Notes under the pieces: model-generated | Databases searched by the model: none | Seen by the model: the letters and a program-made list of their open reading frames with translations, nothing else | What the model was told of the DNA's origin: nothing | Position numbers and translations under genes: made by a program | Shown here: one piece after another, positions 1-15,582 of the stretch | How positions within the stretch are numbered: the first letter of the stretch is position 1 | How the letters are laid out: each line of letters opens with the position of its first letter | IMG/VR virus record: IMGVR_UViG_2721755721_000006 | Length of the DNA: 16,579 nucleotides | Source of the DNA: a virus | Taxonomy: Duplodnaviria > Heunggongvirae > Uroviricota > Caudoviricetes | Reading direction: 5' to 3' (one strand)

Positions 1-210
1 ATGAAACACCGGACCTGGATCACTGAAGCTTTACGTCTTCACTTTGAAGAACATTTACCCCGGGTTGTGGCCGGGCGTCGCCTGAGTGTACCAAAATCAA
101 CAGTTTGTAGTATGTTCGTGCGCTTTCGGAGAGCTGGCCTTTCGTGGCCTTTGCCCGCAGGCATGTCGGAGCAGGAACTTGATGCCTGCCTTTACGGACA
201 ATTTTCCACG
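1..210 (+). pseudogene. IS21-family IstA transposase, N-terminal fragment (HTH region only)
   Basis: Translation of 1-210 (…RRLSVPKSTV…RRAGLSWPLP…MSEQELDA…) matches the HTH and GLSWPLP-type motif I remember from IS21 IstA N-termini. The rest of IstA and any IstB are absent. The frame runs on into an unrelated IS66 TnpA-like segment, so this is a remnant. Confidence 0.4.
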
Positions 211-255
211 GTACCAGTCGTACGTCCTGAAAGCACCGTTATATCCGAAGCCCCC

Positions 256-609
256 GTGGTAAAAAAACGTCCCCGGCGGCCCAACTTCCCTTATGAGTTT
301 AAAATCGCCTTAGTGGAGCAGTCACTACAGCCCGGAGCCTGTGTGGCGCAGATCGCCCGGGAAAACGGAATCAACGATAACCTGCTCTTCAACTGGCGCC
401 ATCAATACCGGAAAGGTGGCCTGCTGCCTTCCGGAAAAAATATGCCGGCACTGCTTCCCGTGACGTTAACGCCGGAGCCGGATAATAAAATCCCGGCCCC
501 CGCACAGGAACCAGAGCAGATAAATACACCGTCCGACAGTCTGTGTTGTGAGCTGGTTCTGCCGGCCGGAACTCTCAGGCTTAAAGGTAAACTGACGCCG
601 GCGTTATTA
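256..609 (+). pseudogene. IS66-family TnpA (orf1)-like remnant, cut at the IRR of the intact IS66 copy
   Basis: The peptide RPRRPNFPYEFKIALVEQSLQPGACVAQIARENGINDNLLFNWRHQYRKGG aligns directly with the intact IS66 TnpA at 2632-3057 (EPRKNYSNEFKLRMVELASQPGACVAQIARENGVNDNVIFKWLRLWQNEG). A possible GTG start lies at 256. Homology ends at 609, where the IS66 terminal repeat GTAAGCG begins. No tnpB or tnpC follows on this strand. Confidence 0.6.
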
Positions 610-610
610 C

Positions 611-634
611 GTAAGCGTCAACGGAGCACCGTAT
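611..634. repeat. IS66 terminal inverted repeat (tnpC-proximal end)
   Basis: GTAAGCGTCAACGGAGCACCGTAT, compared with the reverse complement of 3119-3142 (GTAAGCGTAAACTGACCGCCGTAT). Confidence 0.6.
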
Positions 635-640
635 TGACGC

Positions 641-2254
641 TTATTTATTGGTGAGTACTACGTTCCATGGCAGGAGTTCATCAACTCGGTTGGAAGGCCA
701 TTCCGGCAGTACGCTCAGGATATGGCGCAGATACGCTTCCGGATCGATACCGTTCAGACGGCAGGTGCCGATCAGCCCGTACAACAGTGCTCCACGCTCG
801 CCGCCGTGATCGCTGCCAAAGAACATAAAGTTTTTCTTTCCGAGACAGACTGCACGAAGCGCTCTTTCCGCAGCATTATTATCCGCCTCCGCCAGACCGT
901 CATCACTGTAATAACAGAGGGCATCCCACTGATTCAGTACATAGCTGAACGCTTCGCCCAGTCTGGATTTTTTCGACAGCGTACCATTCTTCTCCACCAT
1001 CCATTCATGCAGCGACGTCAGTAACACTTTGCTTCGCTGCTGCCTGACGGCAAGACGCTCTAACTCCGGTAATCCCCGTATTTCATCCTCGATGGCGTAC
1101 AGTTCACTGATTCGCTTCAGGGCTTCTTCTGCCGTCGCACTTTTGCTGCTGATGTATACATCGTGGATTTTTCGCCGGGCATGGGCCCAGCACGCAACTT
1201 CTGTCAGTGCACCACCTTCACGTTCTGCACTGAACAACCTGTCGTAACCTGTGAACGCATCCGCCTGCAGGATACCCCGGAAGGGGCGGAGGTGTTGCTC
1301 CGGGTGTTTCCCCTGCCGGTTCGGCGAGTACGCGAACCAGACCGCTGGAGGAGATGACGAACCCACATTGCGATCATCCCGGACATACGTCCAGATACGC
1401 CCTGTTTTCGCCTTTTTCTGACCCGGTGCCAGTACCTTTACCGGTGTGTCATCAGTGTGAACCTTGCGGGTGTTCATTACATAACGGTACAGGGCATCAT
1501 TCACCGGTGTCATTAACTGGCAGCACGCGTCAACCCAGTTGGAGAGTAAGGCCCGGCTCAGTTCGACACCCTGGCGGGCAAAGATTTCACTCTGACGATA
1601 CAGTGGCAGATGTTCGCAGTATTTTCCCGTTAACACGCGGGCAAGTAATCCGGGGCCCGCGATACCACGCTCTATCGGGCGGGACGGCGCCGGTGCTTCA
1701 ACAATACAGTCACATTTTGTACAGGCTTTTTTTACCCGTTCTGTGCGGATCACTTTCAGGGCACTGCTCACCAGTTCCAGCTGTTCAGCGCTGACTTCCC
1801 CCAGATAATCCAGCTCACCGCCACACTCCGGGCAACAGCTTTCTTCTGGCTCCAGGCGGTGTATTTCACGGGGAAGGTGTGCCGGTAACGGACGACGATG
1901 GCGCGACTGTCGCAACTGGCGGGGAACCTGAGGATCGTCTTCCCGCCCACTGTAACGATCGCTGTCCTGTTCACGTTGTTTCAGCAGAGCCTCAGCCAGT
2001 TCAACTTCACGACGCAGTTTTTCAGAACGGGTACCGAACAGCATCCGGCGCAGTTTTTCTATCTGAGCCCGCAGATGTTCTATTTCCCGTTCATCTTCTT
2101 CGATCTTTTCTTCGGCACGTGTCAGTGCAGAGCGCAGGAAGGCTTCCGTCTCTTCAACCAGACTCAGTTGCTGGTCTTTCTGACGGAGGGCTTCAGCCTG
2201 CTCAGAGAGCAACCTTTCCAGCTCTGCGATGCGAATGAGGTATTTCTGACTCAT
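641..2254 (-). CDS. tnpC: IS66-family transposase TnpC (537 aa)
   Basis: N-terminal coiled-coil/leucine-zipper region, a CPECGG…CTKCDC zinc-finger region and a long DDE-type core. Size and order match IS66 TnpC. Confidence 0.92.
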   Translation of the reverse strand: MSQKYLIRIAELERLLSEQAEALRQKDQQLSLVEETEAFLRSALTRAEEKIEEDEREIEHLRAQIEKLRRMLFGTRSEKLRREVELAEALLKQREQDSDRYSGREDDPQVPRQLRQSRHRRPLPAHLPREIHRLEPEESCCPECGGELDYLGEVSAEQLELVSSALKVIRTERVKKACTKCDCIVEAPAPSRPIERGIAGPGLLARVLTGKYCEHLPLYRQSEIFARQGVELSRALLSNWVDACCQLMTPVNDALYRYVMNTRKVHTDDTPVKVLAPGQKKAKTGRIWTYVRDDRNVGSSSPPAVWFAYSPNRQGKHPEQHLRPFRGILQADAFTGYDRLFSAEREGGALTEVACWAHARRKIHDVYISSKSATAEEALKRISELYAIEDEIRGLPELERLAVRQQRSKVLLTSLHEWMVEKNGTLSKKSRLGEAFSYVLNQWDALCYYSDDGLAEADNNAAERALRAVCLGKKNFMFFGSDHGGERGALLYGLIGTCRLNGIDPEAYLRHILSVLPEWPSNRVDELLPWNVVLTNK

Positions 2255-2284
2255 GACCGTTTTTATAATGCGGTCAGGAGTTTT

Positions 2285-2635
2285 TTACAACATTGTCAGT
2301 GAGTTACGGCTGGATGTTTTTGGCTGACGCCAGTCCAGCTTATCGAGGAGCATTGCCAGTTGCGAGCGGGTAATGGATACCTTGCCGTCACGTACCGCAG
2401 GCCAGATAAACTGGCCTTCCTCCAGGCGTTTGGTGAACAGGCACAGACCATCAGCATCAGCCCAAAGAATTTTGACGGTGTCACCCCGTCGGCCACGGAA
2501 GATAAACAGGTGACCGGAGAAGGGATTATCATTCAGCACATGTTGTACCTGTTCTCCCAGTCCGTTGAAGGATTTACGCATATCGGTAACGCCGGCAACG
2601 AGCCAGATACGGGTACCTGATGGGAGTGAGATCAT
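2285..2635 (-). CDS. tnpB: IS66-family accessory protein TnpB (orf2, 116 aa)
   Basis: MISLPSGTRIWLVAGVTDMRKSFNGL… is the hallmark IS66 Orf2 N-terminus. Its ATGA overlaps the tnpA stop. Confidence 0.92.
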   Translation of the reverse strand: MISLPSGTRIWLVAGVTDMRKSFNGLGEQVQHVLNDNPFSGHLFIFRGRRGDTVKILWADADGLCLFTKRLEEGQFIWPAVRDGKVSITRSQLAMLLDKLDWRQPKTSSRNSLTML

Positions 2636-3057
2636 CTTCCCCTCCCGGTCAGTTCACGGATCAACACTGTGAGCAGCTCTGGCGATGGATTTTCCAGCGT
2701 CATGTTACCGTGACGGAATTCCACCTTGCAGGAACTGGCACTGACTCTGGTCTGAGTGGAAGTGGATAAAGACGGCGCAATGGCCGCCACAGGTTCTTTC
2801 TGCTCATCCGGCGTTATTTCTACAGGTAATAATTCAACGCCAGTGTCAGAAGAGGTCGTTACCGGAAGACGCCGCGAAACACGCCCTTCGTTCTGCCAGA
2901 GCCTGAGCCATTTGAAAATAACATTATCATTGACGCCATTTTCACGTGCAATCTGTGCAACACAAGCTCCAGGTTGTGATGCCAGTTCCACCATACGAAG
3001 TTTGAATTCATTCGAATAGTTTTTACGAGGTTCTTTTCGCCAGTCCTGTAATTCCAT
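2632..3057 (-). CDS. tnpA: IS66-family accessory protein TnpA (orf1, 141 aa, HTH)
   Basis: First gene inside the tnpA-proximal terminal repeat. HTH segment QPGACVAQIARENGVNDN. ATG confirmed at 3055-3057. Confidence 0.9.
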   Translation of the reverse strand: MELQDWRKEPRKNYSNEFKLRMVELASQPGACVAQIARENGVNDNVIFKWLRLWQNEGRVSRRLPVTTSSDTGVELLPVEITPDEQKEPVAAIAPSLSTSTQTRVSASSCKVEFRHGNMTLENPSPELLTVLIRELTGRGR

Positions 3058-3118
3058 ACTTAGATGTCCGTCTATATCAGATGGGCGTCTAAGTTACCAA
3101 TTCTCGTCTGATGGCTAC

Positions 3119-3142
3119 ATACGGCGGTCAGTTTACGCTTAC
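3119..3142. repeat. IS66 terminal inverted repeat (tnpA-proximal end)
   Basis: Reverse complement is GTAAGCGTAAACTGACCGCCGTAT. It lies 85 bp upstream of the tnpA start. Confidence 0.6.
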
Positions 3143-3284
3143 GGTAATTCTGAATCAGCCACTCGACCTGTTCTTCAGTGCATTGGTCATGCTGGTACCA
3201 GTCATATTTGAATGCGTGAGAGCGCCGTCCGTGTCTGCTGGCAGGGTCGGCATCAGAATTGTGGTGTTTGGTATTGTGCGCCAT
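3143..3284 (-). pseudogene. 5' fragment of an unknown ORF, interrupted by the IS66 insertion
   Basis: ATG at 3284 opens MAHNTKHHNSDADPASRHGRRSHAFKYDWYQHDQCTEEQVEWLIQNYR. The frame then runs into the IS66 terminal repeat and stops at 3072 inside the IS. The upstream Shine-Dalgarno is weak. Confidence 0.2.
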
Positions 3285-3351
3285 CGGTTGTCTCTGCTGG
3301 CGCAGCAGGTGCCAGTTGTTCAGGCTGGCGTGTGGATTGTAAACCAGAATG

Positions 3352-3383
3352 CCAGGAAAAAACAAAACCCGCGAAGCGGGTTA
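3352..3383 (-). terminator. Rho-independent terminator downstream of the restriction endonuclease gene
   Basis: On the minus strand a GC-rich hairpin (AACCCGC / GCGGGTT, 3366-3382) is followed immediately by UUGUUUUUUCC. On the plus strand no U-tract follows, so it is unidirectional. It lies 70 bp past the R stop. Confidence 0.7.
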
Positions 3384-3454
3384 GTAAAAATGTACTGAAG
3401 TCAATGACGTGCCATCACAGTTAAAATATGACAGACTCTATTTACGTAGAGATG

Positions 3455-4333
3455 TCAGACTGCAAGATCCAAGGGAAGATCAGAAATATCCTTTAATCTT
3501 TTACCATTAACCATCACGGAAAGCATGTCAGCTGCATCGCTGAGCCCCAGTATTTCAACTGCTGATATAAGTTCATAAAGCGCAAAATGATACACGCAAT
3601 CTATATCACCAGTACCAAGAGCAATAGACGCCAGACGACTTGGAGTAGGCTCAGCAGTAACAACCATTACATGAGGGAGATTTCCCTTACGGTTGCGAAT
3701 AAGATTTAATGCCTCAGAACGAGCATTCTGGGCCCGGTCGCTTCTTATTGTCCATTTGCAGGAAATACTTGCGTGTAATATTGGTTTCCCACCATTCGAA
3801 CTCCTGAGAGCTGACATGCGGGTAACAGAATCATCCACCAGTAATTCAGGACTGTTGATAACTTGATCACATTCAGGTTCTCTTTCAACAATAATATCTG
3901 GTGAAATCGTATAATCACTCCCCAGTGCAGCAGCTAGCTGAGGATTACTTTTTGCAGCACTATCCAATGCTATAAGATGGGCATATTGTTCATATTTAGC
4001 TATCTCTAATCTGTTTCTACCAGAAACCTGATGTACATTCCATTTTCCAGGGCGTAAGTGGCTGAGTTTAAAAAAGGTTTTTTCTATAAACTCTGCGCAG
4101 ATACTCTCAAACTGATTACCAGATGTTTGCCCTGCAACACGTTCACCAATCGTTTCAGCCTGCAAGAAGCGAGCAATTTCTCTTGCTATAGCTTTACTGT
4201 TTTTGTTACTGCTATCTGCGTTACTAACAACTCCGGCAGTATTAATTGTGAGCGTATTCAGTAACAATTGGGCATGAAACTCCTTTCTGGCTTCAGCAAA
4301 ACCAACTATGCTGTCAACCAAATCTCCATTCAT
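3455..4333 (-). CDS. Type II restriction endonuclease, Cfr10I/NgoMIV-like PD-(D/E)xK family (292 aa from the ATG at 4333)
   Basis: Immediately downstream of the m5C methyltransferase gene. The sequence TGA-AGGAAATCCAGAA-ATG gives a Shine-Dalgarno 9 nt before the ATG at 4331-4333. The protein has PD (in TISPDIIVERE), then SCK 47 residues later, then E 14 residues after the K. The six-frame ORF extends to 4468 but that part overlaps the M gene 3' end. Confidence 0.72.
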   Translation of the reverse strand: MNGDLVDSIVGFAEARKEFHAQLLLNTLTINTAGVVSNADSSNKNSKAIAREIARFLQAETIGERVAGQTSGNQFESICAEFIEKTFFKLSHLRPGKWNVHQVSGRNRLEIAKYEQYAHLIALDSAAKSNPQLAAALGSDYTISPDIIVEREPECDQVINSPELLVDDSVTRMSALRSSNGGKPILHASISCKWTIRSDRAQNARSEALNLIRNRKGNLPHVMVVTAEPTPSRLASIALGTGDIDCVYHFALYELISAVEILGLSDAADMLSVMVNGKRLKDISDLPLDLAV

Positions 4334-4346
4334 TTCTGGATTTCCT

Positions 4347-5471
4347 TCAGGCTGCTTGACTATTCTTACTGATGTTATTCTTATACCGTCCCTGCAAAAC
4401 TCCATACACATATTGTGCGATTTTTGCCGCAAATAGCGGTGGAACAGCATTCCCGATCTGCTTTGCAATCTCAGTTTTTGAACCGGTAAAAATGAAATTA
4501 TCAGGAAAAGACATTAATCTCGCTGCCTCACGATGAGTTATTGGCCGATCCTCTTCCGGATGTAAATATCGCCCTTTCTCCGGTTTGAAAAACTCAGTAC
4601 GAATCGTTACTGAAGGTCTGTCCCACCACAGACGTCCAAACAAATCGGTCCCTCCAGATTTCTTTTTTAGCCAGCACGCCGGGGTTATATCAGGTCTTTT
4701 TTTCTGTAAATCGAAACGGTTACCTCCTGGTGGAACCGCTTTATATCGCTCCAGAGAAACAGGTGTGGGATTACGCCCAAAATGTAAGTTCAGCGGAGGA
4801 AGTTCATTACGAATATCAGTTCCAACAGGAGCAGGTAAGTCACCAATTGCATCACGCGTACAGACCCATTCAGGCAAAGCGACATCCTTATCAGGGGAAC
4901 GATGCGTTGGTGCTGGCGGGAACGCCGGAATACTATGCACATCGAAGAGTTCTCGTTTGATACCGATTGCTATCGTTCGTTTTCTTGTCTGAGGTACTCC
5001 ATAGTCAGCAGTATTCAACACCATTGGATTAAGCAGAATAAAGCCCATGGATTTCGCTCTAAACGTAATGTCCGCAAACTCATCGCTTATCAGCAATCCG
5101 GGGACATTTTCCATGACGAACATACAAGCCCTTGAACGCTCAATGACATCCATATAAGGCTCCCACAATGCTCTTCGGTGATCACCATAACGATTCTTAT
5201 TCAATAAACTGAATCCCTGACACGGGGGGCCACCTATGACCACATCAGCCTCAGGAACAGTATTGCTGGATGCCCACTCCTCAATATTTGCCTGAACTCC
5301 ATGCAAACCAAAATTGGCATTGTAGGTATTTATAGCTGCAGCATTATTATCAATAGCAAGGATACTTTCAAAGTAGTCAGACATCTCTCCATGAAGAAAA
5401 CCATAAGATAATCCACCTGCCCCACAAAAGAGGTCTATCACTCTGAATTTATTTAATTCTTTCATCCGCAT
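4347..5471 (-). CDS. DNA (cytosine-5)-methyltransferase (374 aa)
   Basis: Canonical m5C methyltransferase motifs in order: FCGAGG (I), GGPPCQGFS (IV, catalytic Cys), ENV (VI), QTRKR (VIII), GNAVPP (X). There is no N-terminal HTH extension. Confidence 0.93.
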   Translation of the reverse strand: MRMKELNKFRVIDLFCGAGGLSYGFLHGEMSDYFESILAIDNNAAAINTYNANFGLHGVQANIEEWASSNTVPEADVVIGGPPCQGFSLLNKNRYGDHRRALWEPYMDVIERSRACMFVMENVPGLLISDEFADITFRAKSMGFILLNPMVLNTADYGVPQTRKRTIAIGIKRELFDVHSIPAFPPAPTHRSPDKDVALPEWVCTRDAIGDLPAPVGTDIRNELPPLNLHFGRNPTPVSLERYKAVPPGGNRFDLQKKRPDITPACWLKKKSGGTDLFGRLWWDRPSVTIRTEFFKPEKGRYLHPEEDRPITHREAARLMSFPDNFIFTGSKTEIAKQIGNAVPPLFAAKIAQYVYGVLQGRYKNNISKNSQAA

Positions 5472-5554
5472 CCATATGCCTCAGATTAATGTTGAGCGTC
5501 TTACAGGACGCGTAATGTTAACTGGGGCTTTCTCTATCTGCCTTTTGGTGTTCA

Positions 5555-5579
5555 TGCCTGAGGCAGACAGCCTCAGGCA
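5555..5579. repeat. Perfect 9-bp inverted repeat (TGCCTGAGG-N7-CCTCAGGCA) between queH-like and the methyltransferase gene
   Basis: Stem 5555-5563 pairs with 5571-5579 around the loop CAGACAG. No U-tract follows on either strand, so it is not a canonical terminator. It sits about 85-100 bp upstream of the M start. Confidence 0.4.
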
Positions 5580-5649
5580 CCCGCAGCAATTCTACTTAAC
5601 TCACGTCACCTCGCCAATATGAAATCAATCAGAAAGGTGATCCATAAAA

Positions 5650-6336
5650 TCACTCCTTCTCTTCTTTTCCGTAGTGGAGTTGGCCAATTTTGATAAGAGG
5701 GCGTCCCTGAGATTTGCGGTGTAGATTGGTATCGCGCAGAGAATACACACAGCCACAATATTCCTGCTGATAGAATTTTTCGCGCTTGCTGATTTCAATC
5801 ATACGGGACGAGCCGCCCTGCTTGCGCCAGTTATAATCCCAGTACACCATACCCGGATAATGCGCAACAGCTCGCCGCCCACACTCGTTAACCTGCTGCA
5901 TATTTTTCCAGCGTGAAATGCCCAGTGAACTACTGATCACACTGAAACCATTTTCAGCAGCGTACAACGCTGTCCGCTCAAAACGCATGTCAAAACACAT
6001 GGTACAACGGATCCCCCTCTCAGGCTCCCATTCCATTCCTTTGGCACGTTCAAACCAGTTGTCGGTGTCGTAATCAGCATCGATAAACGGCACGCCGTGT
6101 TGTTCAGCAAAGCGAATATTTTCATCCTTACGAATTAAATACTCTTTCTGAGGATGAATGTTCGGGTTGTAGAAAAAGATGGTGTAGTCGATTCCCGAGG
6201 CCTGAAGCGCCTCCATCACTTCACCGGAACATGGAGCACAGCAAGAGTGCAGTAGTAGTTTGTTTGCCCCGTTTGGAAGCTCCAATTTAGGCCGTTTGAA
6301 ATCAGCAATAGTCATAAATATTTTTATTGGGGTCAT
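5650..6336 (-). CDS. queH: QueH-like protein (DUF208; putative epoxyqueuosine reductase family)
   Basis: Shows the DUF208/QueH signatures [24 protein letters not shown] and QEYCGCVY. An alternative ATG start at 6315 would shorten the N-terminus. No obvious Shine-Dalgarno at either start. Confidence 0.75.
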
Positions 6337-6489
6337 GAAAATAGCACAGAGTGTAGCATCAGAGCAGGGCTATCGGGAATATATGTCTAAATCTGGTAAT
6401 ATCTGGTTTTGACGCAAAGCGGACAACCACGCTGGCTCTACCCTGCGCCATGAAAATGTCAATTCACATCTGAACTAATGCTCTTTAAT

Positions 6490-6915
6490 CTAGTAACGTC
6501 TAAAATACCTAACATTTCCTTGATAAAATGCCAGTACACGCTGCATAGCTTCGCTCTTCCGGCACTCGCGACAGATTATGTTCATACGCCTGTCGTAGCG
6601 GCGTATTTCTCCGTCGGGTAATGTCCAGATAAGGCCCGGATCAACCACAACAGGTTTCTTCACCTTTGCACTCGAGAGTTTTTTGCGGGCGTTTTGCCAG
6701 TCCTTACGAGCCTGTTCTGACGGGAACAACCCATAGCCAGAGTGATATACATCACCACTGGCAACCAGCTCTCTGGCAAGAACGCTCATCAGATATCTTG
6801 TCGCACCTGTCTTGGCTTCCAGTTGCCGTAACGTCTCGCGCCCACTCCGGCGTACTAGCTCAACAACCTGCCCTTTAATTTTTTCCCGCTCTTCTTGTGT
6901 AAATACTTTTTCCAT
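6490..6915 (-). CDS. Hypothetical phage protein (141 aa) with a putative N-terminal winged-helix segment and a basic C-terminus
   Basis: ATG at 6913-6915 is preceded by GAAGG 5 nt upstream. It abuts the stop of the upstream ORF and is co-oriented with the replication genes. The six-frame ORF begins at a TTG at 6930. Confidence 0.55.
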   Translation of the reverse strand: MEKVFTQEEREKIKGQVVELVRRSGRETLRQLEAKTGATRYLMSVLARELVASGDVYHSGYGLFPSEQARKDWQNARKKLSSAKVKKPVVVDPGLIWTLPDGEIRRYDRRMNIICRECRKSEAMQRVLAFYQGNVRYFRRY

Positions 6916-6930
6916 AAGCGCCTTCGGCAA

Positions 6931-7701
6931 TCACTTTTCCGATACAACACGGCGGGAAGAATCAGTAATCTGTCGAACAATATCCCGGTGCTTGTTCAGC
7001 TCCCGCAGCGCGGCGCAGACTCGCTCCCACTTCTGAACATCACTTTTCGCCCTGCGCAGCGCCAGGTTTGCCCTGCGAAGGGACGGAAAAATCAGCTCAT
7101 CTGCTTGCGTTTCGGTAAACGATGGCAACGGCTGCACAATGTCCGCCACAGTTTCTGTTTTAATTTCTTCCTGTGTTGCGGCTTCCCGGACTGGTAACGC
7201 AGCACCTGCTGGCTGAGGAAAGGCCTTACCATCACTTTCCGTTACCAGCGCGGCTTTCGGCTCTGCTGGTAAATTATCGCCCGGCATGCAGTAACGAAAT
7301 TTACCGTTCTGATTAACGCGTGCCAGCCGCCCCGTTGCGGTTACCACCGCCAGCGTGGAAGCAACCTTGCGAGTACTGACACCGAACTTACCCGCCAGTT
7401 CCTCACACGTTTTAGCCCCATCCTGACCGATAAACTCAATCATCATGTCTGCGGTAACTTTTTGTTCGACCTCCCTGGTCAGCATATCCTGTGCTTCAGA
7501 TTTTACTGGCCGCTCCTCGGTTACCCGGGATTCACCTTCGCCAGCCAGAAACCAGGTGTGACCAGTTTTATCAACGACGCCATTTCTTTTGAGTTCCCAC
7601 ACCTCGTTGACAGCCTCTTCACGAGTGATTCCAAGGCGAGCTGCCACCACATGTGAAGAGGCTTTTTTCAGTGCTTTCAGTGCGTCAGATACGGTTTCCA
7701 T
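6931..7701 (-). CDS. Hypothetical phage protein (256 aa) with two winged-helix-like repeats
   Basis: Strong Shine-Dalgarno GGAGGAAATTTTA before the ATG at 7701. Two HTH-like segments (VVAARLGITREEAV… and …CEELAGKFGVSTRKVAST…). Sits just downstream of the DnaC-like gene, as lambdoid post-replication genes do. Confidence 0.6.
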   Translation of the reverse strand: METVSDALKALKKASSHVVAARLGITREEAVNEVWELKRNGVVDKTGHTWFLAGEGESRVTEERPVKSEAQDMLTREVEQKVTADMMIEFIGQDGAKTCEELAGKFGVSTRKVASTLAVVTATGRLARVNQNGKFRYCMPGDNLPAEPKAALVTESDGKAFPQPAGAALPVREAATQEEIKTETVADIVQPLPSFTETQADELIFPSLRRANLALRRAKSDVQKWERVCAALRELNKHRDIVRQITDSSRRVVSEK

Positions 7702-7722
7702 TAAAATTTCCTCCGGACAAAA

Positions 7723-8469
7723 TTACTTCACAACCCTCATATTGCTGACATTTGGACGCCAGCTATCCCAGTTAAACGTCACCCATCGACCACCGTTCAT
7801 GGTCATGCGGTCCATAATCCTCTCACCAAGAAGCGTACTCATTGCGGCATGATTCAGGTTTGTTAACATCCCGACACTGCACAGTGATGCTGTCCGGCGA
7901 TCAATTATCTGGTGCAATACCACCTGCTCGTTTTTCGTCTCCCGCTGAACGCCTATTTCATCCAGGACCAGCAAATCAACCCCGCAAAGCTCCTGTAAAA
8001 ATTTTTCCCCGGATTTGCCGTTGTCGTAGCTGTCATGCAACACGCTCATGACGTCAGACACGGTGACGATAATCACGCTGCGCCCCTTCACCATCAGCCG
8101 GTTGCCCATCGCCGCTGCAAGGTGATTTTTCCCGGTGCCGGTTTTACCGCTGAACACAAAATTCGTGCACCCGGTCATCAGTTCGTCAGCTATGGATTTG
8201 GCCTGGCTCAGCGCGTATTTTTGCCCGTCGTTCTGCACCTGATAATTTGCAAACGAGCATTTGCTGTGCAGAGGCTGGATGCCCGAACGATTCAGGATTT
8301 TTTCCACCCGCAACTGGCGATTCTGGCGGTTAATCTCCTCGCTGCGTTTTCGTCCTTCAGCAAGTTGCCATTCCCGCCACTCCTCCACCGTCCGGTACGG
8401 TGGAACCGACCCCTGTGGTGCAAGTCTGCGAATACGTTCAAGAACCCCAACTGCCGCAATGTTTTTCAT
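7723..8469 (-). CDS. DnaC/IstB-like AAA+ helicase loader (phage replication protein, P/YdaV-position)
   Basis: Walker A (GKTGTGKNHLAAA) and Walker B (LLVLDEIG) motifs. 248 aa. Starts 7 bp after the O-like gene stop. Confidence 0.9.
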   Translation of the reverse strand: MKNIAAVGVLERIRRLAPQGSVPPYRTVEEWREWQLAEGRKRSEEINRQNRQLRVEKILNRSGIQPLHSKCSFANYQVQNDGQKYALSQAKSIADELMTGCTNFVFSGKTGTGKNHLAAAMGNRLMVKGRSVIIVTVSDVMSVLHDSYDNGKSGEKFLQELCGVDLLVLDEIGVQRETKNEQVVLHQIIDRRTASLCSVGMLTNLNHAAMSTLLGERIMDRMTMNGGRWVTFNWDSWRPNVSNMRVVK

Positions 8470-8475
8470 GACACG

Positions 8476-9438
8476 TCACCCCCTGAATCCCGGCGGTATT
8501 TCAGTGTCCGGTTCAGAAATGTGATTCACGCAACGCTGCGCGGGCGAACGCCCCAGGCGGATAACCAGTTCATCCCATTTTTCCCGGAGTTTTGCCGGAC
8601 TCATGATGTTTTTTACCCAGAACGAATCCCGCTGGAGACGCCCAAACATTTCACAAATTTGTCTGTGAGTTCTGCCATCCAGCATCCGCATTGTCCGCAC
8701 GTCATTGGCCCATGCAGTCCAGTTGGGTTCTTTCGGTCTCGTGATCTCGCCATCATCGCTGGCCGCCTGCTCGTAAAGACTCACGATTCGTCCCCAGATC
8801 CACTGTGCGCACACCAAATCTTCCTGACTTCCCCACTGGCGTTTTTTCGCACTGAACACAACCGCGTCAGGGTGTCGGGTTAAAAAATTCTGTTCAGCCG
8901 TCTGCGGGTCCGGTTGCGAAGCGTCCGGACAAGAAGATCTTTTATCTGACGGATCAGGTTTTAATACTGACGGATCGGGGTCAATCATCGCCCCCCTAAT
9001 CGGCAGTTTGTTATCAACAGTTGATCCATCAAAATTTGACGGGTCAACCGTTGAGGGGGCAATATTTGACGGGTCAACTGTTAACGGGTCATTTTTTGCC
9101 GGGCTAATTTTTCTTTTCGGTTTATATGACTCACGCGCCGCCGCAGCAGCTGCTTCGAGTTTTTCCACATTAAGCCGATAGATATTGCTTACATTACGCC
9201 CACCGACCTTACGCTCTTCCTTCGTCAGCCAGCCCTCTTTCGCCAGTTCTGCAATAGCCGATTTCACTGTGGATTCACTTCTTGCACCGATCTGACGCCG
9301 GATAGTTTCAATGGCAGGCCATGACACGCCCTCGTCATTGCTGTAGTCTGCAAGACGGGCCATAACCGCCACCCTGGATAAGATCATGCCGGTGAAGGCG
9401 CACCCTTCCCAGACAAGACCATGAAGCTTGCTGCTCAT
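8476..9438 (-). CDS. Phage replication initiator (lambda O-like; YdaU-position), with internal iteron repeats
   Basis: N-terminal wHTH region, a repetitive linker (…TVDPSN… three times, DPDPS, KPDPSD) that corresponds to DNA iterons, and a C-terminal domain. ATG at 9436-9438; the six-frame ORF starts at a GTG at 9453. Confidence 0.8.
   Translation of the reverse strand: MSSKLHGLVWEGCAFTGMILSRVAVMARLADYSNDEGVSWPAIETIRRQIGARSESTVKSAIAELAKEGWLTKEERKVGGRNVSNIYRLNVEKLEAAAAAARESYKPKRKISPAKNDPLTVDPSNIAPSTVDPSNFDGSTVDNKLPIRGAMIDPDPSVLKPDPSDKRSSCPDASQPDPQTAEQNFLTRHPDAVVFSAKKRQWGSQEDLVCAQWIWGRIVSLYEQAASDDGEITRPKEPNWTAWANDVRTMRMLDGRTHRQICEMFGRLQRDSFWVKNIMSPAKLREKWDELVIRLGRSPAQRCVNHISEPDTEIPPGFRG
8945..9130. 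repeat. Iteron cluster plus adjacent AT-rich stretch (putative prophage replication origin inside the O-like gene)
   Basis: Five copies of T(G/A)ACGG(A/G)TC at 8947, 8968, 9037, 9067 and 9082. Two ~23-bp near-identical repeats at 9031-9053 and 9061-9083 (AAAATTTGACGGGTCAACCGTTG versus AATATTTGACGGGTCAACTGTTA). An AT-rich run follows at 9091-9130. Confidence 0.55.
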
Positions 9439-9460
9439 AAAACCCCCGAACACCGTGCTT

Positions 9461-9886
9461 TTAGTGCATCACCACAGCATTCCCTGCCGGGCCGCCGCGA
9501 TTCATCTGGTCATACAAAACAACCGCTGACGCAACAAAATCATCGACATCCTTCACCAGCCGATCCCTCCGTTCGACGATCTCACGGTAATATTCAGAAC
9601 TGTGGCTGCGCATACGGGCCACCAGCAGAGGCGGCATTGCCTTTTCGATCGCCGGTAACAGAGCCTGAATTTTTTCAACAGCATCAGGGGTGTCTTTATC
9701 CAGCCAACGGAAAATTTTCTGTGTATTACGGGCCAGGGCTTCCGGATGGCTGTCGTCGTACAGTTCAGGGAACGTCATCCCCAGTTCGAAATAAGTCCGG
9801 GCTATTTCAGCTGCAGGAACTTTCTCACCATCAGGGTATGCCCAGGCATTCATCGCCATGCGGATGTGCTCATGTTTGATTTTCAT
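9461..9886 (-). CDS. YdaT-like protein (CII-position regulator of Rac/CP-933P-type prophages; 141 aa)
   Basis: Second gene of the rightward-operon analogue, directly after the Cro-like gene (its ATG at 9884-9886 overlaps the upstream stop at 9870). Size matches what I recall for YdaT (~140 aa). Assignment rests on position and size, not a verified alignment. Confidence 0.6.
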   Translation of the reverse strand: MKIKHEHIRMAMNAWAYPDGEKVPAAEIARTYFELGMTFPELYDDSHPEALARNTQKIFRWLDKDTPDAVEKIQALLPAIEKAMPPLLVARMRSHSSEYYREIVERRDRLVKDVDDFVASAVVLYDQMNRGGPAGNAVVMH

Positions 9887-10193
9887 GAATCATTTGCCTC
9901 TTGATGCTTCGGGTATGATCGTTTTCGTCATTTGGTTGCTTCATCGACATATTCTGCGAATAACATGACGAGCGTCGTAAGTATGTCCAATCAACATCAG
10001 GACGAAGTTCTTCACACAGGACACCACCTTTTGTTGCTCGTTCAATCGCAGGACATCTCTCAGCAGGCAACTGACGTACACCTTTGATCCATTGATTTAC
10101 GCTTGGAGGAGATACACCTAAAAGCCTAGCCATTGCTGATTGCCCACCGACAACAGCACAAGCTCGTTTGAATGAATAGTTATCTTTTTTCAT
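9870..10193 (-). CDS. Cro/YdaS-like HTH regulator (107 aa from the ATG at 10193)
   Basis: HTH segment QSAMARLLGVSPPSVNQWIKGVRQLP. GGAG lies 8 nt before the ATG. It is the first gene after the divergent PR-like promoter. The six-frame ORF begins at a GTG at 10214, which coincides with the predicted transcription start. Confidence 0.72.
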   Translation of the reverse strand: MKKDNYSFKRACAVVGGQSAMARLLGVSPPSVNQWIKGVRQLPAERCPAIERATKGGVLCEELRPDVDWTYLRRSSCYSQNMSMKQPNDENDHTRSIKRQMIHENQT

Positions 10194-10220
10194 CGAATGA
10201 ACTCCAAAAAACACGCAACA

Positions 10221-10317: not shown

Positions 10318-10794
10318 ATGCTTAGTGGTAAAGACTTAGGCCGAGCGATAGAGCAGGCCATTAACAAAAAAATTGCATCAGGAGCCGTCAAATCAAAGGC
10401 GGAAATCGCACGTCATTTCAAAGTCCAACCACCATCAATCCATGACTGGATTAAGAAAGGTTCGATAAGTAAAGACAAACTTCCAGAACTATGGCGTTTC
10501 TTTTCTGATGTGGTTGGTCCAGAGCATTGGGGGCTTAACGAATACCCCATACCAACCCCATCCACTTCAGATACAAAAAGTGAACTTTTAGACATAAACA
10601 GCCTTTATCAAGCCGCCTCTGATGAAAAAAGAGCAATTGTGGCTTTCCTCTTATCTGGAAATGCTACGGAGCCTAGTTGGGTTGATCATGACGTTCGCGC
10701 CTACATTGCCGCAATGGAAATGAAGGTAGCTAACTATCTGAAAAATCAAGAATCAAAACGGAAAAGCCAGAACATCACCAAGACAGGAACTTAA
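10318..10794 (+). CDS. Prophage repressor, RacR-like (158 aa, HTH, no recognisable LexA-type autocleavage domain)
   Basis: Divergent from the Cro-like gene. TAGGAGA lies 10 nt before the ATG at 10318. HTH segment KSKAEIARHFKVQPPSIHDWIKKGS. Flanked on both sides by the same operator dyads. Confidence 0.72.
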   Translation: MLSGKDLGRAIEQAINKKIASGAVKSKAEIARHFKVQPPSIHDWIKKGSISKDKLPELWRFFSDVVGPEHWGLNEYPIPTPSTSDTKSELLDINSLYQAASDEKRAIVAFLLSGNATEPSWVDHDVRAYIAAMEMKVANYLKNQESKRKSQNITKTGT

Positions 10795-10808
10795 ACTTAT
10801 ATGGTCCG

Positions 10809-10830
10809 ACGGGAAATTCCTAGTTCCCGT
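10809..10830 (+). terminator. Weak hairpin downstream of the repressor gene (candidate terminator)
   Basis: ACGGGAA / TTCCCGT stem with an 8-nt loop, 13 bp after the stop. The following sequence TAGTT is only weakly U-rich. Confidence 0.25.
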
Positions 10831-10887
10831 TAGTTAACTCCTACTACCTCTCCCACAAACCATCACCTATTAGGTCGCGCCCAAATT

Positions 10888-10931
10888 ATTAGGCATAGCC
10901 TATTGACAAGTAATTAGGCATTTCCTATAGT
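10888..10931 (+). promoter_or_regulatory. PL-like sigma70 promoter with overlapping operator dyads (OL analogue)
   Basis: TTGACA (10903-10908), a 17-nt spacer, then TATAGT (10926-10931). Operator dyads TAGGCATAGCCTA (10890-10902) and TAGGCATTTCCTA (10915-10927) have the same core as the OR sites. Confidence 0.6.
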
Positions 10932-11116
10932 TTTCCCATACCAACCCATCCCGTCCCACACAATACAGGGCAATACCTCGAGTTACCAGGCAGTGGTCAG
11001 GGGTTAAGTAGCCAGCCCGAGGCGTAAGAACATGACGGCAGGGTTCAACTTTAATAACTATGCAGCAGGTTTTTGTTCCGCTACCCCGGCGTTAAGGGGA
11101 AACAGAGGGTTTCTCA

Positions 11117-11473
11117 GTGGGCGAAGTCAAACATCAGAATGGAAGGCATCCCGGGATCGGCAAAGAAGCAGCAATGGCGCTTTATATTGACATCAGCGCC
11201 ATTGCAGGACAGGTAAGAGTTATCAGAGCGGTAACTAAGCGGTATGCGCCTTTACTTCAGAAAGTCTCTGGTGAGTGCACCGAAGATATTGTCAACGATT
11301 TCGTCATCGAACTGCGAGGACTCATCTTCAGTTACAAGGTGACCACAATTTTTGCAGATGGCTCCCGCGAAACTGTCAGAGCCCTGCGGCTTAAAGGATG
11401 TATCAAAGACTTCGCCACCACATTCTGGGCAAGAAAACTTGATTGTATTCATAACCAATTTCCTCTCGAGTAA
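11117..11473 (+). CDS. Hypothetical early-left ORF (118 aa); mutually exclusive with the minus-strand zinc-ribbon ORF
   Basis: First ORF downstream of the PL-like promoter and co-oriented with it. GTG start preceded by GAGGG at 7 nt. It is in exact codon phase with an antisense ORF, so one of the two is probably a mirror artefact. Confidence 0.3.
   Translation: MGEVKHQNGRHPGIGKEAAMALYIDISAIAGQVRVIRAVTKRYAPLLQKVSGECTEDIVNDFVIELRGLIFSYKVTTIFADGSRETVRALRLKGCIKDFATTFWARKLDCIHNQFPLE
11252..11452 (-). CDS. Small zinc-ribbon protein with an acidic C-terminal tail (66 aa); alternative to the plus-strand ORF
   Basis: ATG at 11450-11452 preceded by GAGAGGAAATTGGTT. Contains CPECGG…(20 aa)…CKNCGH followed by the tail EDESSQFDDEIVDNIF. 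Convergent with PL-like transcription. Confidence 0.35.
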   Translation of the reverse strand: MNTIKFSCPECGGEVFDTSFKPQGSDSFAGAICKNCGHLVTEDESSQFDDEIVDNIFGALTRDFLK

Positions 11474-11544
11474 CAGACCCCTCAGAGGATACCACCTCGC
11501 CTGACGTGGTTAAAAGCAGGCAACGCTAACCACAAGGAGCCGAC

Positions 11545-11763
11545 ATGCAGAAACGAGAACCCGTCATCATCGCGCCAGACTATACCGATGATGAACTTTA
11601 TGAGTGGATGCACCAGAAAATTAATGCAGCGCAGGATCTGAAATGGGCCAATGAAGCCAGGGCTAAGCAGGCTGAAAATCTGTCCGCTCTGGAGCAGGAT
11701 ATCACCAGGCTGGAAAAAGCAGCGGCATTAAGCATTGCCAGAATGATTACATACCCGCGTTAA
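11545..11763 (+). CDS. Small hypothetical early-left protein (72 aa)
   Basis: Consensus Shine-Dalgarno AAGGAG 5 nt before the ATG. Co-oriented with the PL-like promoter. No antisense competitor ORF. Confidence 0.55.
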   Translation: MQKREPVIIAPDYTDDELYEWMHQKINAAQDLKWANEARAKQAENLSALEQDITRLEKAAALSIARMITYPR

Positions 11764-12331
11764 TAGCTAACCAACGAAGCTAAGGTTGGTAATTAAGGAG
11801 TTCTCCACGGGTGAGGTGGAGTGCGTGCGCCGGACACGGGTGAGCATCCGGCACTGACAGTTTACTGAAAGGATATTTCCCTGAAAAGTCAGACCATAAC
11901 GCGAAAGCGCACGGCGAGGTAGCTGGTTCATAGATAGCCTGTCGTTAAATTTTCGTCGACCGTGCGCTTCCGGTTGTGGCAATCCGCGAAATGGCGCGGC
12001 GGTAAGTATGGCGGGGTTATTCCTTCCCCCGTTGAGGACACCGGGTTGTCAGGTTGACCATACGCTTAAGTGACAACCCCGCTGCAACGCCCTCTGTTAT
12101 CAATTTTCTGGTGACGTTTGGCGGTATCAGTTTTACTCCGTGACTGCTCTGCCGCCCTTTTTAAAGTGAATTTTGTGATGCGGTGAATGCGGCTGAGCGC
12201 ACGCGGAACAGTTAAAACCAAAAACAGTGTTATGGGTGGATTCTCTGTATCCGGCGTTAATTGTTAACTGGTTAACGTCACCTGGAGGCACCAGGCACTG
12301 CATCACAAAATTCATTGTTGAGGACGCGATA

Positions 12332-12520
12332 ATGGAAACGTTATTACCAAACGTTAATACGTCTGAAGGTTGTTTTGATATTGGTGTTCTGCTCAGTAAC
12401 CGGGAGTTTACTGAAGATGCCATTAATATGAGGAAATATGAGCCTTATCTGCTCAATGATAATTCCATACTTTCCCGAATTGCTCTTCTTGAACTTGGTA
12501 TTTTCGGAGAACGTCAATGA
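12332..12520 (+). CDS. Small hypothetical protein (62 aa), first gene of a translationally coupled pair
   Basis: ATG at 12332 with AGGA 7 nt upstream. Its stop overlaps the next start in an ATGA at 12517-12520. The six-frame ORF begins further upstream at a GTG at 12227 that has no Shine-Dalgarno. Confidence 0.5.
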   Translation: METLLPNVNTSEGCFDIGVLLSNREFTEDAINMRKYEPYLLNDNSILSRIALLELGIFGERQ

Positions 12521-12705
12521 CTTCAGCATTTGCACTGATGATGACGGTTTTTCTTATAACGGGTGAATCACAGAATGTGATTACCGGAATTTATGCAAGT
12601 AAAGAATCCTGCCTCCAGGCAAGAGACGAGCAAAAAATTTCTGGTGAATGCCTCCCGCTAAAAAAAGTATCGCTGTACCTGAATAACGAAACACCGGCTG
12701 GATAA
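12517..12705 (+). CDS. Small protein with an N-terminal hydrophobic signal/anchor segment (62 aa)
   Basis: GGAGAA 5 nt before the ATG. The N-terminus MTSAFALMMTVFLITG is hydrophobic, and the hydrophilic C-terminal part has two Cys residues. Confidence 0.5.
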   Translation: MTSAFALMMTVFLITGESQNVITGIYASKESCLQARDEQKISGECLPLKKVSLYLNNETPAG

Positions 12706-12800
12706 CCCTCCAGCCATATTAACACCATACCAACGGATTAAAAATGCCAGCAATGGCAGGGATTCGTTCACCCTGAAATCTGTCATGAGGTTAAAACAAA

Positions 12801-15272
12801 ATGAGTAAAGTCTTTATTTGCGCCGCCATTCCTGACGAACTGGCAACAAGGGAAGAAGGCGCTGTGGCTGTAGCCACAGCTATTGAAGCTGGCGACGAAC
12901 GCCGTGCTCGAGCAAAATTTCACTGGCAATTCCTGGAACATTATCCGGCTGCTCAGGACTGCGCTTATAAATTTATTATCTGCGAGGATAAACCTGGCAT
13001 ACCCCGCCCTGCCCTCGATTCATGGGATGCTGAATATATGCAGGAAAACCGCTGGGATGAGGATTCTGCTTCTTTTGTCCCGGTTGAGACTGAATCCGAT
13101 CTGATGAACGTCACTTTTGACAAGCTGGCCCCTGAAGTACAGAACGCTCTCATGGTTAAGTTCGACACATGTGAAAACATCACCGTTGATATGGTTATTA
13201 GCGCACAGGAATTGTTGCAGGAAGACATGGCAACATTCAACGGACATATCGTTGAAGCGTTGATGAAAATGCCAGAAGTTAACGCCATGTATCCGGAGCT
13301 TAAGCTGCATGCCATCGGGTGGGTTAAGCATAAATGTAAGCCTGGTGCCAAATGGCCCGAAATTCAGGCAGAGATGCGCATCTGGAAAAAACGTCGCGAA
13401 GGTGAACGCAAGGAAACCGGAAAATACACGTCTGTTGTTGATCTCGCCCGCGCCAGAGTCAATCAACAGCACACTGAAAATTCAACAGGAAAAATCAGCC
13501 CGGTCATTGCTGCCATTCATCGCGAATACAAGCAGACATGGAAAACACTGGATGACGAACTGGCCTACGCTCTCTGGCCTGGTGATGTGGATGCCGGAAA
13601 CATTGACGGCAGCATCCATCGCTGGGCAAAAAATGAAGTTATCGACAACGACCGCGAAGACTGGAAGCGTATCTCGGCATCAATGCGCAAACAGCCTGAT
13701 GCCCTTCGCTACGACCGCCAGACTATTTTTGGCCTTGTCCGTGAACGTCCGATCGACATTCACAAAGACCCTGTGGCACTGAACAAATACATTACTGAAT
13801 ACCTGACTACAAAGGGCGTGTTTGAAGATGAAGGAACAAATCAGAGCGCAACTGATACTCTCTCGTCGTCAGTACCAGAAACTGATGCAGTGGAAACGGC
13901 AATTCCGGACAACGAAAAAACCGAATGCAAAGTGGAAGTCGAACCATCTGTAGAGCGTGAGGGGCCGTTCTACTTCCTCTTCACCGACAAGGATGGCGAA
14001 AAATACGGTCGCGCAAACAAACTTTCTGGTCTGGATAAGGCACTGGCTGCCGGGGCTACTGAAATCACGAAAGAAGAATATTTCGCCCGCAAAAACAGTA
14101 CATACTCAGGTTCACAACAAAATACTGGTGCATCTGACACGACCGCACAACCAGGGCCGGTAAAAGTTACCGCTGACGAAGTAAACAAAATTATGCAGGC
14201 AGCCAATATCAGCCAGCCTGACGCCGATAAGTTGCTTGCTGCCTCTCGCGGAGAATTTGTTGCAGGGATTAGCGACCCGAATGATCCGAAATGGGTTAAG
14301 GGGATCCAGACCCGCGATTCTGTAAACCAGAACCAGCATGAATCGGAACGGAACTACCAAAAAGCGGAACAAAACAGCCCAAATGCGTTACAAAACGAGC
14401 CAGAAACGAAACAGCCTGAACCAGTGGCGCAACAGGAAGTGGAAAAAGTCTGCACCGCCTGCGGTCAGACCGGCGGCGGCAACTGCCCTGATTGTGGCGC
14501 AGTGATGGGCGACGCAACATACCAGGAAACATTCGATGAAGAGTATCAGGTTGAAGTTCAGGAAGATGATCCGGAGAAAATGGAAGGCGCTGAACATCCA
14601 CACAAGGAGAACACTGGCGGCAATCAGCATCACGATAGCGATAATGAAACTGGCGAGACGGCAGATCACTCAATTAAGGTGAACGGTCATCAAGAAATCA
14701 CATCCACCAGCAGGACGTGTGACCATCTAATGATCGACCTTGAAACCATGGGAAAAAATCCTGATGCCCCGATCATCTCAATAGGTGCAATATTTTTCGA
14801 TCCGCAAACCGGAGATATGGGACCGGAATTTAGTAAGACTATTGATCTGGAAACTGCTGGCGGAGTCATTGATCGGGACACCATTAAATGGTGGCTTAAG
14901 CAATCACGCGAAGCGCAATCTGCCATTATGACCGATGAAATCCCGTTAGATGATGCACTGTTACAATTGCGGGAATTTATCGACGAAAACTCCGGTGAAT
15001 TTTTTGTTCAGGTCTGGGGTAACGGTGCAACTTTCGACAACGTGATTTTACGCCGTTCATATGAACGGCAGGGGATCCCCTGCCCGTGGCGTTACACCAA
15101 TGATCGCGATGTAAGAACGATGGTTGCTCTGGGACTGGTGATGGATTTCGACGCAAGAACGACTATTCCATTCGAAGGTGAACGCCATAACGCTCTGAAC
15201 GATGCACGTTACCAGGCGAAATACGTTTCAGCCATCTGGCAAAAACTGCTCCCGAGTCAGGCTGATTTTTAA
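12801..15272 (+). CDS. Large prophage exonuclease (823 aa): N-terminal region of unknown function, acidic low-complexity linker with an internal zinc ribbon, C-terminal DnaQ-like DEDDh 3'-5' exonuclease domain
   Basis: The C-terminal ~185 aa carry Exo I (LMIDLETMG), Exo II ([13 protein letters not shown]) and Exo III ([14 protein letters not shown]-x4-D) motifs. [17 protein letters not shown] zinc ribbon lies around 14447-14500. The gene sits where RecE sits in Rac-type prophages. Confidence 0.85.
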
Positions 15273-15339
15273 TGTTCAACCCATATCGCCGCCCACCAGC
15301 TATAGTGGCGGCGGTCATGCTGTAAAGGCACGTGACCAC

Positions 15340-15582
15340 ATGTACGAATTAACTCTATCTCCAGCAGAGATTAAAGAGATCACGAAATACGAGCGATACA
15401 CAAAACAGCAACACCAGTTAAGACTGCACGGCATCCCATTTGTAATCGGCCCTAAAAACGAACCCATAGTTCTCCGCAGGGATATTCCACACGGTCTGAC
15501 AACGATGCCAAAAACATCTGAACTGTTTTCTGCTGAACCCGATTTTGAGGCGCTGAACAATGGGAAGACCAAGAAAAAATAA
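15340..15582 (+). CDS. xis: Excisionase-like protein (80 aa)
   Basis: The N-terminus MYELTLS… resembles lambda Xis (MYLTL…). The gene overlaps the integrase start by 23 nt, as lambda xis does with int. The upstream Shine-Dalgarno is weak. Confidence 0.55.
   Translation: MYELTLSPAEIKEITKYERYTKQQHQLRLHGIPFVIGPKNEPIVLRRDIPHGLTTMPKTSELFSAEPDFEALNNGKTKKK

Follow-up and report, generated by a model that had tools for sequence, protein, structure and literature searches.

Why does a prophage of Escherichia coli carry a complete pair of genes for DNA modification and restriction, and what would these two genes do for the phage or for its host? The question is raised by a stretch of 16,579 nucleotides of a tailed phage (Caudoviricetes; IMG/VR record IMGVR_UViG_2721755721_000006), here called the window. 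Two open reading frames (ORFs) on its minus strand, between positions 3455 and 5471, encode a DNA methyltransferase (M) and a restriction endonuclease (R), as an initial annotation of the bare sequence had proposed. Very probably, the pair is a working, intact and co-transcribed Type II restriction-modification (RM) system, carried as a moron, with a nuclease of the NgoMIV type that acts on GCCGGC. In this reading, M would methylate host and prophage DNA at the C5 position of a cytosine in GCCGGC or in a larger site around this sequence. R, a nuclease with a PD...(S)xK...E active site, would cut unmethylated G/CCGGC on incoming phage or plasmid DNA. Incoming DNA would be restricted, loss of the prophage would be penalised, and the lysogen would benefit. 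The enzymatic activities, the exact target and the methylated cytosine are what we infer from the two proteins and their relatives.

The Pfam search that the initial annotation had suggested for both proteins assigns R to PF09015 (NgoMIV_restric) and M to PF00145 (DNA_methylase). For R, the match amounts to 423 bits (E 6e-127, cut-off 23.2), with residues 19-292 spanning profile positions 1-275 of 275; the REase_II model of PADLOC gives 417 bits, and NCBIfam holds no specific model for this protein. In a sequence search of the PDB, the chains of NgoMIV (1FIU and 4ABT, E 1e-118) are the sole ones at E <= 0.01. Compared with NgoMIV of Neisseria gonorrhoeae DSM 9188 (locus L004), R is 65% identical over its full length, with 282 aligned positions and one single-residue gap; it has six extra residues at its N-terminus. 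By these matches, R is a true member of the NgoMIV family and does not belong to the Cfr10I/Bse634I subfamily: neither of these two enzymes is matched by sequence in the Pfam and PDB searches, which return NgoMIV_restric and NgoMIV chains only. Therefore, of the description "Cfr10I/NgoMIV-like" in the initial annotation, the second half stands and the first finds no sequence similarity behind it.

The active site can be read residue by residue. R contains PD at 145-146, SCK at 191-193 and E207, with 47 residues from D to K and 14 from K to E, and the alignment bears out the spacing that had been given for D140, K187 and E201 of NgoMIV. E76, D146, S191, K193 and E207 of R align with E70, D140, S185, K187 and E201, the catalytic residues of NgoMIV (PMC2532715). 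The spacing as such is not diagnostic of NgoMIV. The pattern PD-X46-53-K-X13-E, together with R-(D/E)R, is shared by R with Cfr10I and Bse634I (R/CCGGY), SgrAI, AgeI, BsaWI and Ecl18kI (PMC3413111); being common to the CCGG family, it fits the family as a whole.

The residues that contact the bases are more telling about the target. The R-(D/E)R motif reads the CCGG core (PMC3413111, PMC5389614), and RSDR at 197-200 of R is identical to residues 191-194 of NgoMIV. In NgoMIV, the outer G:C pair is read by D34 and R227 (PMC5389614), and a role at this pair is also ascribed to Gln63 (PMC3413111); the equivalents in R are D40, R233 and Q69. All catalytic and base-contacting positions are invariant across a family alignment of 36 members, down to 56% identity. 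R thus shares with NgoMIV, a Type IIF enzyme that cuts G/CCGGC, the PF09015 family, the active site, the RSDR motif and the outer-base contacts. Unlike the Cfr10I/Bse634I group, it keeps the residues that impose a strict outer G:C pair. Since these contact residues are conserved, G/CCGGC is the predicted target rather than RCCGGY. Of the two targets put forward initially, GCCGGC is thereby favoured over RCCGGY.

By analogy with NgoMIV, R would cut G/CCGGC so as to leave 5'-CCGG overhangs, and it probably acts as an NgoMIV-like tetramer that binds two sites (Type IIF). The segment 150-185, which covers the region of the tetramerisation loop of NgoMIV, is the least conserved part of R, and there are no gaps relative to NgoMIV in the loop. 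An AlphaFold2 model of R, built from an alignment of 29 sequences, is of low confidence, with a mean predicted local distance difference test score (pLDDT) of 53.9; probably, this is due to the shallow alignment. Its sole significant PDB match is 1FIU (E 2.8e-24, template-modelling score 0.66), with AgeI and BsaWI appearing only at non-significant E-values. In practice, the NgoMIV fold seems to be implied by the 65% identity, and no claim is based on the model.

M carries the motifs of a 5-methylcytosine (m5C) methyltransferase in canonical order: FCGAGG at 15, PCQGFS at 83, ENV at 121, QTRKR at 161, THREAAR at 312 and GNAVPP at 340. They represent classes I, IV (PCQ, with the catalytic Cys), VI, VIII, IX and X. 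With these six motifs located, and with matches to PF00145 (184.6 bits, E 4e-54) and to TIGR00675 (154.5 bits, cut-off 100.65), the statement that all canonical motifs are present is borne out, and M is by these features a bona fide C5-cytosine methyltransferase. Its nearest relatives in the PDB are 3G7U, M.HaeIII and M.HhaI. The candidate that would come to mind first, an orthologue of M.NgoMIV, is ruled out. M.NgoMIV, encoded directly upstream of R in L004, has 312 residues against the 374 of M, and the two share 22% identity with 73 gap positions, the similarity being limited to the common m5C motifs; M belongs to another methyltransferase lineage. Among relatives of M, which occur with either of two nuclease partners (see below), the region between motifs VIII and IX, where enzymes of this class have their specificity determined, shows the same degree of conservation as the catalytic core. 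This conserved target-recognition region and the conserved linkage with R suggest that M protects GCCGGC.

The two genes are arranged as a compact operon. The ATG of R lies 13 nt past the TGA of M on the same strand, in the context GCCTGA AGGAAATCCAGAA ATG, and the spacer contains a Shine-Dalgarno sequence of its own, AGGA, 9 nt ahead of this ATG, as had been noticed at first sight. A longer, TTG-initiated ORF (3455..4468) is an artefact of ORF listing, and R is taken from the ATG. In RefSeq, M starts two codons later, at the second in-frame ATG (position 5465), which yields 372 amino acids. Adjacent, co-directional and with a linkage that is conserved in relatives, the genes make up what is, to judge from their arrangement, a complete Type II M-R operon.

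The impression that the pair is rich in AT is confirmed by base composition, with a G+C content of 0.430 for 3455..5471 (M 0.442, R 0.416) against 0.531 in the insertion sequence (IS) part of the window and 0.484 in the remaining prophage. At third codon positions, M has 0.37 and R 0.30, where adjacent genes have 0.48-0.62. The conclusion initially drawn from this, a recent horizontal acquisition, does not follow. Homologous cassettes in Klebsiella-type prophages are likewise low in G+C (0.41-0.47), and AT-richness therefore marks a travelling phage module instead of a datable event. No mobility signals were found at the ends of the cassette.

Where the pair is located is an observation that differs from the first description. 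It had been placed beside the prophage; it sits inside the phage, and only the IS66 DNA on the left lies outside phage DNA. In complete lambdoid prophages, such as that of strain 9000 and others, the pair is found between QueH and the genes for DUF968, RusA and antiterminator Q, all on one strand. The E. coli prophage is lambdoid and Rac/Qin-like, and the pair forms a moron within its early-right operon, between the replication genes with QueH and the nin/Q region. In the window, this order is interrupted: IS66 DNA cuts the prophage 240 bp beyond the terminator that follows R, truncating a small ORF that in relatives runs on into DUF968, and the DUF968, RusA and Q genes are removed. Homology of the prophage to other genomes starts at 3142. 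The window as a whole has no record in the complete-genome collection, where the best coverage is 77%.

The unit itself is widespread. Positions 3300..5700 (2.4 kb) are identical in 60 of 5,426 complete E. coli genomes, among them O157:H7 strain 9000, the UK Z-series O157:H7 genomes, O39:NM F8704-2 and human commensal isolates, and in more than 20 E. coli prophage contigs of IMG/VR; at 99.9-100%, it is conserved in dozens of genomes and viral contigs. On identical DNA, RefSeq names the proteins WP_001427299.1, "DNA cytosine methyltransferase", and WP_001012717.1, "NgoMIV family type II restriction endonuclease". Outside E. coli, the closest homologues (80-81% identity for M, 86% for R) are carried by lambdoid prophages of Klebsiella-type hosts, again in the early-right or Q region; at the DNA level, these copies resemble the window only within the two ORFs (5453..3462, 72-75% identity). 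A second E. coli setting is provided by the prophage L114, where the cassette and the same terminator have different neighbours and the leader described below is missing. The cassette therefore moves by recombination among lambdoid prophages.

What occupies this slot when the pair is absent gives a hint of how it came to be there. Sister prophages without the pair, for example L002, have a hokD-type type I toxin gene in the same position between QueH and DUF968. From 5900 to 5478, the window and the hokD locus of L002 share 97.6% identity; the similarity stops at 5478 and resumes, at 84% identity, from 3383 leftwards. A segment of 287 bp with the mok and hok frames in L002 corresponds to 2,094 bp in the window (3384..5477), made up of M, R and a tail of 72 nt. 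By this alignment, the mok and hok reading frames are precisely replaced by the RM cassette. With hok/sok loci of the hokD type, as in L002, the window shares the promoter-like hexamers, the leader of 105 nt and the terminator, and it lacks the mok and hok frames. No toxin ORF is left in the window and, with the 287-bp mok/hok segment absent, the locus does not belong to hok/sok.

Remnants of the hok-type locus are kept on either side of the cassette. The predicted transcript start lies near 5582, where the hok/sok leader model of Rfam starts as well. The GAGG that serves mok as a Shine-Dalgarno sequence in L002 is now found 7 nt upstream of the ATG of M. At the other end, 72 nt past the stop codon of R, a hairpin (AACCCGC-TTC-GCGGGTT, then TTGTTTTTT; 3382..3366; -10.8 kcal/mol) forms the sole terminator-like site in 3000..6000. 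The hokD transcript of L002 has a homologous terminator (4255..4238), and in L114 the same hairpin stands after R, with a different sequence beyond it. The clean terminator of the first description is thus present. Like the Shine-Dalgarno sequence of M and the likely promoter, however, it corresponds to sequence of the hok-type locus, and these elements probably did not come with the cassette. Transcription of the operon may reasonably be supposed to start at the former hok promoter and to run through the leader to the hok terminator.

Several other signals at this locus were considered and rejected. A match to the Rfam family RF01794 "sok" at 5402..5582 (61 bits, gathering score 59) aligns well only over model positions 1 to about 90, in the hok-leader half; the part that overlaps M is filler, and a live antitoxin RNA is rejected. 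The 72 nt after R hold no demonstrable remnant of hok coding sequence, as the score of the best local alignment was reached by 27 of 500 shuffled sequences. A match to RyhB at the terminator is due to chance (24 bits against a cut-off of 55). A simple promoter scan misses the sok promoter of L002, although the hokD locus is intact there, and its failure to detect one in the window is hence uninformative. By analogy with characterised loci, the sok promoter and the 3' fold-back element would also have been part of the replaced 287 bp.

The replacement of a killer gene makes an alternative account of the selected function worth considering. Post-segregational killing is a known effect of Type II RM systems. 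The pair could be a selfish addiction module that stabilises the prophage and has taken over the role of the hok/sok killer. The cassette occupies the exact slot, promoter-like site, leader and terminator of a hok-type locus, and it is a compact unit of essentially two ORFs that moves between different lambdoid prophages, both of which speak for this account. However, defence and addiction are indistinguishable here, and replacement of hok fits either. In work that PMC11364771 cites, hok/sok itself is reported to exclude phage T4, which means that the slot might just as well be a hotspot for defence. Alleles with a frameshift in R and an intact M persist, and R can thus be lost without loss of the element. 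On balance, addiction as the selected function is a tentative proposal with some standing and not the favoured one. Its mechanism is compatible with that of the RM system proposed above, from which it differs only in the function that is selected.

It could also be imagined that the graft has produced a hybrid module, in which the RM cassette is inserted base-precisely into the hok unit and the structured leader retains control over translation or mRNA processing. At a prophage hotspot, one killer or defence module would then have been exchanged directly for another. We consider this idea rather doubtful; if it is true, the RM system is expressed under RNA control of the hok type.

A further possibility is that R is inactive or silent and that M acts as a solitary phage methyltransferase, shielding phage DNA from GCCGGC-type restriction in new hosts. 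Orphan methyltransferases are common on prophages, and a second methyltransferase gene occurs in the same prophage type. Furthermore, two E. coli prophage copies (L111 and L112) have a common deletion of 1 nt at window position 4084, which frameshifts R at about codon 84 and leaves M intact. In the window, R is full-length with all its catalytic residues, and the 2.4-kb unit is near-invariant in its many carriers. Moreover, when the window is compared with L113 and L114, two E. coli alleles that have diverged to about 97% nucleotide identity, M has a ratio of nonsynonymous to synonymous substitution rates (dN/dS) of 0.16, and R one of 0.06-0.07. Purifying selection acts on both genes and is stronger on R. 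A silent R is accordingly very improbable. In one further locus (L130), 1 nt is lost in an A-run of M at 4703 with R intact, which is possibly a sequencing error.

The conserved linkage of M and R deserves a closer look, since it is not a linkage of two fixed lineages. Two surveys were made, of 80 genome loci seeded with NgoMIV and of 69 viral contigs recovered with the M of the window. Nearly all NgoMIV-seeded loci have a methylase of the M.NgoMIV type upstream, including loci whose R is 74-76% identical to that of the window; a window-type M occurs in two of the 80, both cyanobacterial (L062 and L070), at 59% identity. Among the viral contigs, 29 of the 69 have an NgoMIV-type R directly downstream of a window-type M, and the same pairing is found in Klebsiella-type prophages as well as in L062 and L070. 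Six loci without R, in which M is 60-76% identical, were inspected: the partner is a protein of about 325 amino acids with a C-terminal HNH nuclease domain, and its gene overlaps the 3' end of M. The HNH protein may be an uncharacterised nuclease that cuts the same site as R. We read these sequences as the outcome of modular shuffling, in which a methylase lineage that probably has a single specificity is combined with two unrelated nucleases, and a nuclease lineage with two unrelated methylases, the M and R lineages having apparently been exchanged independently.

Very improbable, too, is that R has drifted to another specificity, for example RCCGGY as in Cfr10I/Bse634I or another CCGG-core site, with M protecting that site, since the family shows no variation at D40, R233 and Q69, the Pfam and PDB searches match neither Cfr10I nor Bse634I by sequence, and relatives of R at 74-76% identity pair with M.NgoMIV-type methylases, even though R is only 65% identical to NgoMIV, M is of another lineage than M.NgoMIV, and outer-base specificity in the CCGG family is set by small changes outside R-(D/E)R (PMC3413111). 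Because of the conserved contact residues and the selection data, both a drifted specificity and a silent R are given a very low probability.

Some observations weigh against an active GCCGGC-specific system. Literature searches yielded no experiment, methylome or description of this E. coli system. M.NgoMIV, at 22% identity, is no close guide to M, whose specificity is deduced from its conserved linkage, and close relatives of M (47-76% identity) pair with an HNH nuclease instead. The frameshifted R alleles in some E. coli prophages show that decay occurs. The AlphaFold2 model of R is poor (pLDDT 54). Finally, all four GCCGGC sites of the window (444, 561, 597 and 2591) belong to the IS66 DNA; in the 13.4 kb of prophage, 2.4-2.9 sites would be expected and 0 are present, a difference that is not significant either way.

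The features of the locus and of the surrounding prophage are collected in Table 1.

Table 1. Features of the RM locus, its prophage surroundings and the related loci used for comparison. Coordinates refer to the window unless another locus is named.
Feature	Position	Strand	Remarks
M	4347..5471	minus	Predicted C5-cytosine DNA methyltransferase, 374 amino acids
R	3455..4333	minus	NgoMIV-family Type II restriction endonuclease, 292 amino acids; predicted G/CCGGC cutter
M-R spacer	4334..4346	minus	13 nt; AGGA Shine-Dalgarno at 4346..4343
3' untranslated stretch	3383..3454	minus	72 nt; travels with the cassette; common to the L113 and L114 copies
Intrinsic terminator	3357..3382	minus	7-bp stem (5 G-C pairs), 3-nt loop, then TTGTTTTTT
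hok-type mRNA leader remnant	5478..5582	minus	105 nt; ends in the mok Shine-Dalgarno GAGG (5482..5479)
Promoter-like site	5589..5617	minus	TTGGCG-17 nt-TAGAAT; consensus match; same hexamers in L002 (4684..4656) ahead of hokD
hok-type unit in L002	4232..4684 (L002)		
HNH-partnered methylase loci	about 7088..8080 (L119, L121, L124, L127, L136); 7507..8430 (L140)		
QueH (epoxyqueuosine reductase)	5650..6336	minus	Directly upstream of the hok leader; assigned by Pfam and by RefSeq of identical DNA
Early-right operon	5650..10214	minus	Replication module upstream of the pair: O-like, DnaC-like, DUF1627, DUF977, QueH
Immunity region	9461..10214	minus	YdaT- and YdaS-type genes (the latter Cro-like); divergent from RacR-like repressor gene 10318..10794 (plus)
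Repressor, DicF RNA, dicB region, exonuclease, integrase	10318..16579	plus	
DicF antisense RNA gene	12106..12157	plus	Rfam 76.7 bits, cut-off 48; adjoins dicB/ydfB/ydfC region
IS66-family DNA	1..3141		Pfam DDE_Tnp_IS66, TnpB_IS66, HTH_Tnp_1
IS66 genes	transposase 641..2254; orf2 2285..2635; orf1 2632..3057	minus	
Second HTH_Tnp_1 ORF	1..654	plus	

The DicF gene beside the dicB/ydfB/ydfC region marks the prophage as Qin/Rac-like. QueH is conserved within the early-right operon of sister prophages. Near the Q/lysis region, a second DNA methyltransferase gene is found in some of these prophages: a C5 methylase gene in L114 (10271..11311, minus strand), and further genes in L001 (15824..16882) and L003 (2257..3315). 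In strain 9000, the second gene is annotated as "DNA-methyltransferase", and one prophage can thus bring two methylases.

How does this pair relate to systems that are already known? In the NgoMIV locus (L004, 3050..4849), as in the window, an m5C methyltransferase gene immediately precedes the R gene, with both on one strand. The Neisseria pair is located in the chromosome between housekeeping genes, whereas the pair in the window is on a lambdoid prophage. Carriage by a prophage has a precedent: an NgoMIV R and M pair is carried in the Xylella fastidiosa prophage xap4 as non-essential phage cargo (PMC2605562). Host and phage are different in that case.

The family to which R belongs is textbook knowledge, its enzymes ranking with the best-characterised restriction enzymes, and in dozens of E. 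coli genomes, O157:H7 among them, RefSeq already gives names to exactly this pair. The new points are modest and evolutionary in kind: a hok toxin gene has been replaced inside its own transcription unit, and M and R lineages have been shuffled independently of each other. For the organism, carriers of the pair are predicted to methylate and restrict GCCGGC, which would affect their transformation, their susceptibility to phages and the interpretation of their m5C methylomes. The m5C mark could also expose the DNA of a carrier to restriction of the McrBC or McrA type in other hosts.

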